From a virus (Duplodnaviria > Heunggongvirae > Uroviricota > Caudoviricetes): a DNA stretch of 5,878 nt. The notes beneath the pieces were generated by a model. It saw nothing but the letters and a program-made list of their open reading frames with translations. It searched no databases and had not been told where the DNA came from. The position numbers and the translations under genes are program-made. The DNA is taken from the IMG/VR virus record IMGVR_UViG_2681813274_000006; one strand, written 5' to 3'. How positions within the stretch are numbered: the stretch's first letter is position 1; every line of letters begins with the position of its first letter. Shown one piece after another: positions 1 through 5,878 of this stretch.

Positions 1-570
1 AAACACTATCAATAAGTTGGAGTCATTACCCGATATCCTGCTGAGAACATAAACACCCACGGATCGAGGCGTACGCTATCATGTTGCTACCACACTGACA
101 TGTTTTAAAAAATGCAATAAGACATTGTATCTGANNNNNNNNNNNNNNNNNNNNNNNNNNNNNNNNNNNNNNNNNNNNNNNNNNNNNNNNNNNNNNNNNN
201 NNNNNNNNNNNNNNNNNNNNNNNNNNNNNNNNNNNNNNNNNNNNNNNNNNNNNNNNNNNNNNNNNNNNNNNNNNNNNNNNNNNNNNNNNNNNNNNNNNNN
301 NNNNNNNNNNNNNNNNNNNNNNNNNNNNNNNNNNNNNNNNNNNNNNNNNNNNNNNNNNNNNNNNNNNNNNNNNNNNNNNNNNNNNNNNNNNNNNNNNNNN
401 NNNNNNNNNNNNNNNNNNNNNNNNNNNNNNNNNNNNNNNNNNNNNNNNNNNNNNNNNNNNNNNNNNNNNNNNNNNNNNNNNNNNNNNNNNNNNNNNNNNN
501 NNNNNNNNNNNNNNNNNNNNNNNNNNNNNGCCGGGTTTTGTGATGACCGGTTACGCCAACCCTGTACGTC

Positions 571-2769: not shown

Positions 2770-3027
2770 TTTACGATTTGGGGTTGCGACTTTACCTCTA
2801 TTGATAATGCATTCCGGCAGAACGTTCAAATATGAACGTACGATATTTAACTAACCGAAAAACAAAATATAGCACAGGCGAGACATTTACCATCTAAGAA
2901 AATAGTATCGTTTTTTTACAGTTAAATCAACATCTCTTCCTTAAAATGAAAACAATAAATTTCAATCCTGAAACATTTTATTTCAGCTTATNNNNNNNNN
3001 NNACGTGCTGCGGCATAATCCCAATGA

Positions 3028-3138
3028 TTACTCCCTGACAGGGTTCGTAGGCCACTCAATATCAGGTGCAGTTGATGTATCAACACGGTTCAGCAACACC
3101 CGATACTTTTTCTAGGCTTCCACCACCAGCACGACAAG
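3028..3138 (-). pseudogene. Second copy of the lambda-type tfa 3' end (about 27-35 codons), fused to the pin remnant
   Basis: Minus-strand translation of 3111-3028 gives [27 protein letters not shown]. It is about 90% identical at nucleotide level to 1575-1685 and is preceded by an in-frame TAG (3114-3112) where the other copy has TGG (Trp). Confidence 0.7.
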
Positions 3139-3354
3139 ATGCCGCATACAGTGCCCCAGTCAGTCCAGTTTTCAGACAACCAGTGCGTCACCTTTTTGAA
3201 GGCGCTTTAAAGCACGTTTTAATCCAGGTCGGCCTGTCCTTGTTCCGCTTAATTTATCTTCAAATATTTGTTCATATCCTGCACAAACAAGAGCGTTTCG
3301 TTGCAGGTCTGTATTCTGGTCATTTGTTGATACCCTTACATAGCCAATCAGCAC
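3139..3354 (-). pseudogene. pin: Pin/Gin/Hin-family serine DNA invertase, N-terminal remnant with in-frame stop codons
   Basis: From GTG 3354: (M)LIGYVRVSTNDQNTDLQRNALVCAGYEQIFEDKLSGTRTGRPGLKRALKRLQKGDALVV, then TGA (3174-3172) where Pin proteins have Trp, then KLD, a second TGA (3162-3160), then LGHCMRH. The catalytic-serine motif YVRVSTxxQ is intact. The remnant stops after about 70 codons instead of the roughly 185-190 aa of intact family members. Confidence 0.85.
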
Positions 3355-3408
3355 GCTGAATCTCCCGTCCAAAAGCACAAATCATGCCATGCAGGCCAGA
3401 AACCGCCA

Positions 3409-3434
3409 TTATCTAAAACCTCGGTTTACGAGAA
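3409..3434. other. gix/pix-type inversion crossover site
   Basis: TTATCTAAAACCTCGGTTTACGAGAA: 26 bp made of two imperfectly inverted 12-bp half-sites around a central dinucleotide. It closely matches the Gin/Hin/Pin crossover consensus as I recall it (TTATCCAAAACCTCGGTTTACAGGAA). It lies between the invertase start and the tail-fibre variable cassette, as in Mu and e14. Confidence 0.6.
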
Positions 3435-4193
3435 CTCGGCACAAGCGGGGAGAAAATACCGTTACTCAGTACAGCGAATACCTGGACTAATCGACAAACA
3501 TTCAGCGGTGGCCTTTCTGGTGAACTATCCGGCAATGCTTCTACAGCTGCAAAATTAAAAACTGCCAGGAAAATAAGCAATGTGGCTTTTGATGGTTCCT
3601 CCGATATCACATTAAAAGCAAGTCATGTTGGTGCGTTTGCCTTAGGGAAAACAGGAAGCACCGTTGCGAATGATAAAGCAGTTGGATGGAACTGGAGTAG
3701 CGGAGCCTATAACGCAACTATTAGTGGTGCATCAACGTTAATTATTCATTTTTATATGGGAGAAGGAAGTTGTCCTGCAGCTCAGTTTCGGATTAATTAT
3801 AAAAATGGCGGTATTTTTTATCGTTCAGCCCGTGATGGTTATGGTTTTGAAGCCGACTGGTCCGAATTTTACACCACCAGAAAACCTTCAGCAGGAGATG
3901 TTGGTGCACTGCCGTTATCTGGTGGTCAACTGAATGGTGCACTGGGTATCGGAACATCCAGTGCTCTTGGCGGTAATTCGATTGTATTGGGTGATAATGA
4001 CACGGGCTTTAAACAAAAAGGCGATGGTAATCTGGATGTTTATGCTAATAACGTCCATGTTATGCGCTTTGTCTCCGGAAGCATTCAAAGTAATAAAACC
4101 ATAAATATTACGGGACGTGTTAATCCCTCGGATTACGGTAACTTTGATTCCCGCTATGTGAGAGATGTCAGACTTGGCACACGAGTTGTTTAG
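3417..4193 (+). CDS. Tail-fibre C-terminal variable-domain cassette; promoterless, with the frame opening inside the crossover site
   Basis: The frame is open from the TAA inside the crossover site (3414-3416) to TAG 4191-4193 (259 codons). The track calls only the GTG at 3582. The product (...LLSTANTWTNRQTFSGGLSGELSGNASTAAKLKTARKISNVAFDGSSDITLKAS...) is Gly/Ser/Thr/Asn-rich like phage tail-fibre distal domains. There is no ATG or ribosome-binding site at the 5' end, consistent with expression only after inversion joins it to a constant region. Confidence 0.7.
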   Translation, partial: NLGLRELGTSGEKIPLLSTANTWTNRQTFSGGLSGELSGNASTAAKLKTARKISNVAFDGSSDITLKASHVGAFALGKTGSTVANDKAVGWNWSSGAYNATISGASTLIIHFYMGEGSCPAAQFRINYKNGGIFYRSARDGYGFEADWSEFYTTRKPSAGDVGALPLSGGQLNGALGIGTSSALGGNSIVLGDNDTGFKQKGDGNLDVYANNVHVMRFVSGSIQSNKTINITGRVNPSDYGNFDSRYVRDVRLGTRVV

Positions 4194-4196
4194 ACC

Positions 4197-4343
4197 ATGA
4201 AGAAAGGCGTGATGTATGAAAAATCAGGCCATGTAATCACGGGGCTTGGTATTATCGGTGAAGTCGATGGTGATGATCCGGCAGTATTCAGACCAATACA
4301 AAAGTTAATTAACGGAACATGGTATAACGTATCGCAGGTATAA
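4197..4343 (+). pseudogene. Detached tail-fibre C-terminal tip (48 codons), separated from the cassette by an in-frame TAG
   Basis: Same frame as 3417-4193, with only TAG plus one codon between them. Its product ...[39 protein letters not shown] aligns with the contiguous C-terminus of the minus-strand fibre ([39 protein letters not shown]). Confidence 0.5.
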
Positions 4344-4345
4344 TC

Positions 4346-4999
4346 ATGCAGCATTTAAAAAACATTGTCGCAGGTAATCCAAAAACCGTTGAACAATACC
4401 AGCTAACAAAGAATTTTGATGTTATCTGGTTATGGTCCGAAGATGGAAAAAATTGGCATGAGGAATTAAAANNNNNNNNNNNNNNNNNNNNNNNNNNNNN
4501 NNNNNNNNNNNNNNNNNNNNNNNNNNNNNNNNNNNNNNNNNNNNNNNNNNNNNNNNNNNNNNNNNNNNNNNNNNNNNNNNNNNNNNNNNNNNNNNNNNNN
4601 NNNNNNNNNNNNNNNNNNNNNNNNNNNNNNNNNNNNNNNNNNNNNNNNNNNNNNNNNNNNNNNNNNNNNNNNNNNNNNNNNNNNNNNNNNNNNNNNNNNN
4701 NNNNNNNNNNNNNNNNNNNNNNNNNNNNNNNNNNNNNNNNNNNNNNNNNNNNNNNNNNNNNNNNNNNNNNNNNNNNNNNNNNNNNNNNNNNNNNNNNNNN
4801 NNNNNNNNNNNNNNNNNNNNNNNNNNNNNNNNNNNNNNNNNNNNNNNNNNNNNNNNNNNNNNNNGACTCTCAGCTACAGCTGGGCATCATTTCCGATGAG
4901 AATAAACAAAAATTAACCGAGTGGATGCTCTATGCGCAGAAGGTTGAATCCACAGACACCTCCAGCCTGCCAGTAACGTTTCCCGAACAACCAGAATGA
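4346..4999 (+). CDS. Tail fibre assembly protein (Tfa); interior masked
   Basis: ATG 4346 lies 2 nt after the preceding stop. The N-terminus [23 protein letters not shown] is paralogous to the minus-strand tfa, and the C-terminus ...[28 protein letters not shown] is Tfa-like. 393 nt of the interior are N-masked, so length and frame continuity are assumed. Confidence 0.75.
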
Positions 5000-5001
5000 G
5001 A

Positions 5002-5032
5002 GAAGGCCCGCTATCGGGCCTTAATTTTTATT
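5002..5032. terminator. Hairpin between the convergent tfa genes; probable terminator
   Basis: GAAGGCCCG (5002-5010), loop CTAT, CGGGCCTT (5015-5022), followed by AATTTTTATT on the plus strand. The T-tract overlaps the stop of the minus-strand tfa (5028-5030). Confidence 0.5.
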
Positions 5033-5555
5033 CAGGCTTTTGTGGCCATTCAGGATTTGCCGTATCCACACGGCTGACCAGAACACTGTAGCGTTCCCAT
5101 GCTTCCAGTCGTGTGCGTTCCTCGTCTGTTGCCATATTCAGCCTGACAGCTCGTTCCAGCGGCTGGATGACTGATTCAGCTTCGGAAAGCAATGCGGCCT
5201 TTTGTGATTCGGCCTGTTGTTGCAGTTCCTGTTCTGTATATTCCCTCTTTACTACTTTACCATCCAGAAACATCCATTTTCCGTTATTGTCTGCGTGACG
5301 ATTTGCCGTAATATCAGGAACTTCAACTATGCTTAGCCCTTCAGGATTAATAGTTGAAACGTCTTTACTGACAGCAACGATGATGTTGTTCTCATCGTAA
5401 GCAATTTTTATGGTGTCTGGCTGAAAATTCTTTTGTTCCTCATACCAGTTTTTGCCATCTTCGCAAAAGAGCCATACCACGCCCGCTTTTTTAGTTAGCT
5501 GGTATTGTTCCGGTGTTTTCGGATTCCCGGCCTTAATATTTTTCAGGTGCATCAT
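5028..5555 (-). CDS. Tail fibre assembly protein (Tfa)
   Basis: ATG at 5555-5553, with GGGGAG about 9 nt upstream, starts 1 nt after the fibre stop. Product [23 protein letters not shown] ... [31 protein letters not shown] has a lambda Tfa-like C-terminal motif. The track ORF starts at an upstream TTG (5591), which I think is less likely. Confidence 0.85.
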
Positions 5556-5556
5556 C

Positions 5557-5878
5557 TTAAACACTCCCCACGTTGTACCATATTCCCCCAATCAATTTCT
5601 GAATTGGCCTTCTGGCAACAGTGTCGACAATATCATCCGCATTGCTGTTAATTGCGGCTGTTAAAACATAACCTGACGCATCGCCAAAGCCGTAGTCGCG
5701 CCATACGTTTTTATATTCAATGCTGCCAAGACGAATATCCCGAACGACATGATTATGCAGCCATGTGCTTAACCAGTTGTTTTCCCACACTGAACCATAA
5801 ATATCGCCACTAGACGCAACTTGCGCACCACTTCCCAGCGCAAATTGAGGTAGCCTGAGTTTAACGGACACTCCTTCC
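5557..5878 (-). CDS. Tail fibre protein, C-terminal part; 5' end lies beyond the window
   Basis: The frame is open to the window edge (the track M at 5871 is a GTG; codons continue upstream). The C-terminus ...[62 protein letters not shown] is homologous to the plus-strand cassette and tip, and is followed directly by tfa. Confidence 0.8.

Follow-up and report, generated by a model that had tools for sequence, protein, structure and literature searches.

An in-frame amber codon in a cassette of a decayed invertible tail-fibre segment from Shigella sonnei-type chromosomes

Does the stop codon that interrupts a tail-fibre cassette in this prophage DNA mark a nonsense mutation, or is the C-terminal tip of the fibre made as a separate or read-through product? 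An earlier note on the 5,878-nucleotide stretch analysed here (the window) had put forward both readings. On the + strand, the frame of the cassette runs through ...RYVRDVRLGTRVV into TAG 4191–4193, followed by ACC (4194–4196) and by ATG 4197, which opens an ORF of 48 codons that closes at TAA 4341–4343 (4197–4343). Taken as a whole, the locus is very probably explained by a lineage-specific nonsense mutation in a decayed invertible fibre segment.

In this explanation, positions 3172–5878 would represent a decayed Din-type invertible tail-fibre segment of a defective lambdoid prophage, located next to the trp operon in S. sonnei-type chromosomes and composed of two convergent modules, each with an alternative fibre C-terminus and its own Tfa chaperone gene. 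Within the + cassette, a single C-to-T transition has turned a conserved CAG (Gln) into the TAG amber, so that the C-terminal, receptor-binding domain lacks its last 50 residues and the 48-codon ORF is left as the orphaned 3' end of the gene. The mutation would be recent in origin and carried along with the S. sonnei clone.

The amber codon and the tip downstream of it

The sequence and its translation confirm both the position and the description of the in-frame TAG and of the 48-codon tip ORF given in the earlier note. The nucleotides around the stop read CGA GTT GTT TAG ACC ATG AAG, and the start of tfa at 4346 lies 2 nt past the stop codon of the tip. Over the 150 nt 3' of the amber, identity to the uninterrupted 3' end of intact fibre genes is 87–99%. 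The earlier note had also stated that the tip is contiguous in the minus-strand fibre. The end of that fibre indeed carries a contiguous tip that reads as quoted there, and the tips of the two cassettes share 40% identity across 62 aa (E = 1e-11), indicating that tip continuity reflects homology and not chance. The description of this second gene as a fibre holds less well, as the window contains only a remnant of it, about 95 codons long, and positions 5846–5878 are the end of an insertion sequence (IS).

Translated through the amber site, the sequence aligns without a break to the crystallised fibre of phage Mu, both in 8JU3 (E = 8e-55) and in 5YVQ (E = 5e-16); in 5YVQ, the orphaned tip matches Mu S residues about 452–502. 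The cassette thus resembles the C-terminal regions of Mu S and P2-like gpH in its homology over body and tip (8JU3, 5YVQ, and gpH of Yersinia phage L-413C). It also shares with them a Tfa gene directly downstream of the fibre end, supported by PF02413 matches on unmasked equivalents and on the minus-strand tfa. It differs from them in being interrupted 50 codons before its end, whereas the intact proteins are single polypeptides. Because TAG 4191–4193 breaks what would otherwise be a single continuous ORF to the conserved ...NGTWYNV end, the window copy is a pseudogene of the Mu S / P2 H-type fibre family.

Table 1. Coordinates of the features of the invertible segment in the window.
Feature	Position	Strand	Basis or remark
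Serine invertase fragment, Din-type (Pin/Gin/Hin-like), N-terminal 68 codons	3172..3378	-	C-terminal part missing
Left crossover (inversion) site, Gin/Pin type, GCCATTATCTAAAACCTCGGTTTACGAGAA	3404..3433		Partner site absent from window and lineage
Body of promoterless alternative fibre C-terminal cassette	3414..4190	+	Translation; Pfam gp37_C; 8JU3 match
Amber codon TAG, C-to-T change of conserved CAG (Gln)	4191..4193	+	Alignment with L001 and L-413C H; codon census; SNP table
Orphaned cassette tip: Thr codon, 48-codon ORF, stop	4194..4343	+	Contiguous with body in all non-sonnei homologues
Tfa (tail fibre assembly chaperone) for + cassette	4346..4999	+	Middle masked by N; true length 177 aa
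Tfa for opposite cassette	5028..5555	-	PF02413, E = 1e-36; 175-aa gene in L019–L028
3' remnant of opposite fibre cassette, about 95 codons and stop	5557..5845	-	Translation
Terminal repeat of IS3-family (IS600-like) element	5846..5878		Truncates opposite fibre at 5845/5846

The same codon in orthologues and carriers of the TAG allele

We compared the interrupted codon with its counterpart in orthologous cassettes, as the earlier note had proposed, and found the sense codon CAG (Gln) at 4191–4193 in every orthologue of the same tip type examined outside S. sonnei. In the closest complete genome, E. coli NZ_OZ040035 (L001, 98.7% identical), the aligned codon is CAG, the cassette is fused to the constant part, and the fibre is encoded by one uninterrupted gene of 934 aa. 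Gene H of Yersinia phage L-413C, which shares 87.8% nucleotide identity with the window across the body, the tip, and the start of G, likewise carries CAG and is uninterrupted. In both L001 and L-413C, the fibre gene ends 3 nt ahead of tfa, and ATG 4197 corresponds to an internal Met codon in intact genes. The orthologues do not uniformly carry a stop accompanied by a separate ribosome-binding site, which supports the nonsense mutation proposed in the earlier note; they carry a Gln codon and are read through to the tip.

Broader scans gave a consistent picture. A 68-nt query centred on the stop had no exact match in 5426 complete E. coli genomes. It came close in six of them, with a single mismatch in five and two mismatches in the sixth; among these six, the CAG codon itself was inspected in NZ_OZ040035 alone. 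A degenerate pattern applied to IMG/VR returned 15 loci, nine with CAG and six with TAG, and the same type of scan gave no match in a set of contigs from species-representative genomes, from which the window itself is absent. Between the TAG loci and the nearest CAG loci (L014 and L013, 99.9% identical), the sole difference over 3405–4471 is base 4191, aside from the bases of the crossover site that depend on orientation (3408, 3414, and 3417). At the protein level, 117 of the 124 retrieved homologues with an RYVRDVRLG box run on for at least 40 aa. Three of the short entries end at TRVV and represent the TAG allele (P0016, P0018, and P0033); the other four are partial sequences. The same tip type, beginning TRVVQ, is found in 42 protein-cluster representatives among the retrieved homologues.

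The exact 48-aa and 203-aa products of the interrupted cassette occur under the S. sonnei names Q3Z104_SHISS (strain Ss046) and A0A0I5G696_SHISO; at least 1000 contigs encode them, and 2201 index blocks list them. The TAG allele itself is present in 10 NCBI chromosomes (HE616528.1 among them) and 6 IMG/VR contigs, and the window differs from the ten chromosomes (L019–L028) by only 4–6 mismatches over 4733 unmasked bases. Together, the products under S. sonnei names on so many contigs and the near-identical chromosomes indicate, from sequence comparison, that TAG is an S. sonnei allele that arose by a recent C-to-T transition and is widespread in the clone. A literature search returned nothing on this locus in S. 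sonnei. Part of the few mismatches between the window and S. sonnei fall at 2056–2080, where the N-terminus of a methyltransferase reads MVKLMKKNTDD in the window versus MVKSMKTNTDD in the otherwise identical L007.

Layout and inversion states of the segment

The window shares several features with the Din-family invertible fibre segments (Mu G/Gin, P1 C/Cin, and e14 P/Pin). The remnant of a serine-invertase gene lies beside the segment, a 30-nt inverted crossover site lies inside the fibre gene (seen in L022, with only the left site kept in the window), two convergent pairs of cassette and tfa are evident from ORFs and Pfam, and both orientations occur among genomes. In L022 the inverted repeat spans 7209–7238 and 10129–10158, 2.9 kb apart and 83% complementary, with the partner copy inside the fibre gene. 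The window differs from the known systems in being broken: its invertase is reduced to 68 aa, one cassette carries an amber, and the second crossover site and constant part are lost behind an IS. It further differs from the Mu G segment in that the fibre constant part is of the lambdoid Stf type (PF08400 phage_tail_N, beside gpJ and Lom) and not Mu S. The prophage remnant adjoins trpCBA.

The adjacent invertase matches Pfam PF00239 Resolvase (E = 4.6e-15) over profile positions 2–69 of 145 only, and RefSeq annotates its equivalent as 'recombinase family protein, incomplete, missing C-terminus'. Where a complete invertase gene would encode the catalytic Resolvase domain and a C-terminal HTH, the window has an inherited leftover of one. 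An intact 201-aa copy is found further upstream in one related locus, L017. Next to the fragment in the window is a region with a class I SAM-dependent methyltransferase gene (2056–2724) between repeats of ~89% identity (1551–1698 and 3003–3125), which are C-terminal tfa fragments. The order in L017, from the full 201-aa invertase to the methyltransferase and then to a 66-aa invertase fragment, looks like a cargo insertion that duplicated the 5' end of the invertase gene.

Directly ahead of the cassette body is an in-frame TAA at 3411–3413. A promoter and terminator scan around the cassette detected no promoter-like site, which is weak evidence consistent with a promoterless cassette. The tfa gene of the + cassette is partly masked in the window, and its equivalents in L007 and L019 encode 177 aa with a PF02413 Caudo_TAP domain. 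The N runs of the window (135–529, 1816–1888, 2992–3002, and 4472–4864) do not keep true length. The 393 nt of N at 4472–4864 stand for 273 nt in the identical L007, so that the tfa ORF given as 217 aa is truly 177 aa, and the L007 counterpart of 89–529 is 415 nt long and adjoins an IS1 copy.

On the opposite strand, the second cassette of intact relatives runs into a 918-aa lambdoid side tail fibre (L022) beside Lom and gpJ, and the window diverges from these relatives past 5845. The same 5845/5846 junction, followed by IS orfA/orfB (HTH_Tnp_1, rve), occurs in L007, L019–L021, L023, and L028, and the 'MSVKLRLPQ' start of the ORF at 5557–5871 is encoded by the IS. In this lineage (L007 5718–6960), the genes found after the IS are DUF1327, a holin, and a SASA/NanS-like esterase, and the remainder of the fibre gene is missing there, as are Lom and gpJ; this gene order suggests an IS-mediated deletion or rearrangement.

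Three states were distinguished among genomes with the TAG allele. In one, a silent cassette adjoins the invertase fragment, with the opposite fibre intact at 918 aa (L022, L024, L027, and L018). In another, which is that of the window and of L007, L009, L015, L019–L021, L023, and L028, the cassette is also silent, and the IS has reduced the opposite fibre to ~95 codons. In the remaining state, the segment is inverted, fusing the TAG cassette to the constant part to give a truncated fibre of 875 aa followed by the 48-codon ORF (L025 and L026). Relative to its flanks, window region 3405–5845 is inverted in L025, L026, and L017. L024 and L025, taken from either end of a single chromosome record (UGZB01000001.1), differ in segment orientation, which suggests that the segment was inverting in the sequenced culture despite the truncated local invertase, likely by an invertase acting in trans. 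In the window, the IS end at 5846–5878 means that neither the second crossover site nor the constant part is left and that the segment is frozen.

The earlier note had described the mutation as consistent with decay while the cassette was unexpressed. This part of the claim did not stand: the same TAG allele is in the expressed orientation elsewhere (L025 and L026), and because the mutated cassette is sometimes the expressed one, decay during silence is not demonstrated. In L017, too, a TAG cassette is oriented for expression, following an N-terminus like that of P2 gpH; this locus was set aside for an ambiguous base and a frame break in a repeated region and may be an assembly chimera, so the orientation argument rests on L025 and L026. 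We likewise did not rely on L011, where the constant part flanks the segment on either side and tfa (1107–1639) is frameshifted; this locus probably reflects misassembly of a population with mixed orientations. In P0033 (S. sonnei, 443 aa), a chimeric ORF joins the N-part of the other cassette to a constant-region fragment and then to the TAG cassette. The P0033 and L011 variants could be either real decay or assembly artefacts.

Other damage at the locus includes the invertase cut to 68 aa and the IS at 5845/5846, and related loci contain IS1 copies and a gpJ gene called as two ORFs. Two overlapping ORFs (547 and 513 aa) represent gpJ in L022, L024, L026, and L027 (12816–15994 in L022; 1373–4551 in L026), and three (554, 55, and 462 aa) in L025; these split calls suggest a frameshift and further prophage decay. 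With its invertase truncated and its opposite fibre cut by an IS, the whole locus in the window is dead. Genome decay of this kind is typical of Shigella, and the locus resembles Shigella pseudogenes and IS expansion in its lineage-fixed point nonsense change, IS1 and IS3-family insertions, and truncated prophage genes, with nothing distinctive. This is ordinary pseudogenisation, in which both the type of system and the type of lesion are well known. The tip and the downstream tfa show no further disabling changes in most genomes. If the mutation is very recent, an intact tip and tfa are expected in any case and cannot discriminate decay from retained function.

Fibre structure and competing readings of the stop

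We examined the position of the amber in an AlphaFold monomer model of P0043, an intact homologue that is 90% identical, using only the local secondary structure of the tip. The model has a mean pLDDT of 63.7 and a pTM of 0.29, with its last 60 residues moderately confident (block-mean pLDDT 72–87). Five strands are predicted in the tip, at residues 199–202, 206–210, 221–226, 236–247, and 250–253. The Gln that became the amber is P0043 residue 208, inside the second predicted strand and not at a domain border, and the orphaned tip encodes most of the predicted strands of the C-terminal domain. The best PDB matches in Foldseek are Mu fibre structures, with poor global fold scores against the PDB for this elongated trimer. 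Loss of the last 50 residues should therefore, judging from the model, destroy the distal receptor-binding C-terminal domain, and the truncated fibre would be unable to fold or to bind its Tfa; this predicted loss of function draws on homology and on a monomer model of moderate confidence. The change itself would represent neutral decay and not a selected trait.

In the part of PMC9608196 that summarises work on Mu, a separate Tfa chaperone is described as binding the distal part of Mu-type fibres. The earlier note had instead drawn an analogy with fibres whose extreme C-terminus acts as an intramolecular chaperone. This analogy does not hold for the present family: Pfam showed no family of such a domain in either the read-through protein or the 48-aa ORF, PDB 3GW6 appeared in Foldseek with E = 3.9 only, and a separate Tfa (PF02413) is encoded directly downstream. 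The resemblance to C-terminal intramolecular chaperones (K1F endosialidase, T5 pb1) is limited to the general idea that the extreme C-terminus matters for folding; the fibre here differs in lacking such a domain and in using a separate Tfa.

Up to ~4177, within the RYVRDVRLG box (~4150–4180), the cassette body is matched at 98% by hundreds of E. coli genomes, which past this point switch to a different tip and a different tfa. These alignments suggest that the last ~50 residues and the chaperone gene are swapped as a single unit at the box.

A working split fibre would require that, in the ON orientation, ribosomes reinitiate at ATG 4197 and that the 48-aa tip joins the truncated fibre and Tfa non-covalently, giving a working or altered receptor-binding tip. 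Such a fibre would fit the spacing of the stop and the ATG, which are 3 nt apart and in frame, the occurrence of the TAG allele fused to the constant part (L025 and L026), and the movement of tip and tfa as a recombination module whose boundary at ~4177 lies about four codons upstream of the stop. Termination and reinitiation at an ATG 3 nt downstream is mechanistically possible in the ON orientation, with the fragment split within a beta-strand. Against it, the arrangement is not conserved, with every non-sonnei homologue continuous; there is no Shine-Dalgarno at a usable distance from ATG 4197 (the sole GAG lies 12–14 nt upstream); the break falls inside a predicted beta-strand and not between domains; and the prophage is otherwise degenerate. 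We consider this reading very unlikely. Slightly less credible still is its fuller form, in which the tip-less fibre of 875 aa and a free 48-aa tip made by reinitiation, joined with Tfa, are a naturally split receptor-binding protein, or else a deliberately disarmed fibre under selection. A genuine two-gene design was ruled out by the lack of conservation of the stop; in addition, intact genes have an internal Met codon at ATG 4197, and no usable Shine-Dalgarno is present.

Equally slim is the prospect that the full-length fibre is restored by a suppressor tRNA of the host or prophage, or by leaky termination. A glutamine-inserting amber suppressor (supE type) would fully reverse a change from CAG to TAG, and the base after the stop is A, both of which would suit suppression or programmed read-through. 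A scan of six related loci (~80 kb in total) detected no tRNA with a CUA anticodon, the stop is lineage-specific and not conserved, and the downstream sequence is ordinary coding sequence shared with intact genes, with no read-through structure suggested. Taken together with the lack of a conserved stop and of a usable Shine-Dalgarno, the place of the stop within a predicted strand, and the internal Met at 4197, these results speak against the earlier note's alternative of a separate or read-through tip. An error of sequencing or assembly in a single record, which would fit a single-base difference with nothing beyond it, is next to impossible: the identical TAG recurs in the ten independent NCBI chromosomes and the six IMG/VR contigs, and its products are encoded by at least 1000 contigs. 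On this number of independent records, a sequencing artefact was ruled out as the source of the stop. A lineage-specific nonsense mutation remains the reading that we favour.

For the biology of the lineage, the finding has little significance, as it adds one more point pseudogene, in a prophage remnant, to a lineage known for genome decay. Its practical use lies in annotation: the entries of 203 aa and 48 aa that are called 'phage tail protein' under S. sonnei names are the halves of one broken cassette and should be treated as a pseudogene. The C-to-T change at base 4191, combined with the IS junction at 5845/5846, could provide an easy marker of the lineage. Beyond this lineage, the joint exchange of tip and tfa fits the known pairing of tip and chaperone and may help fibre engineers.
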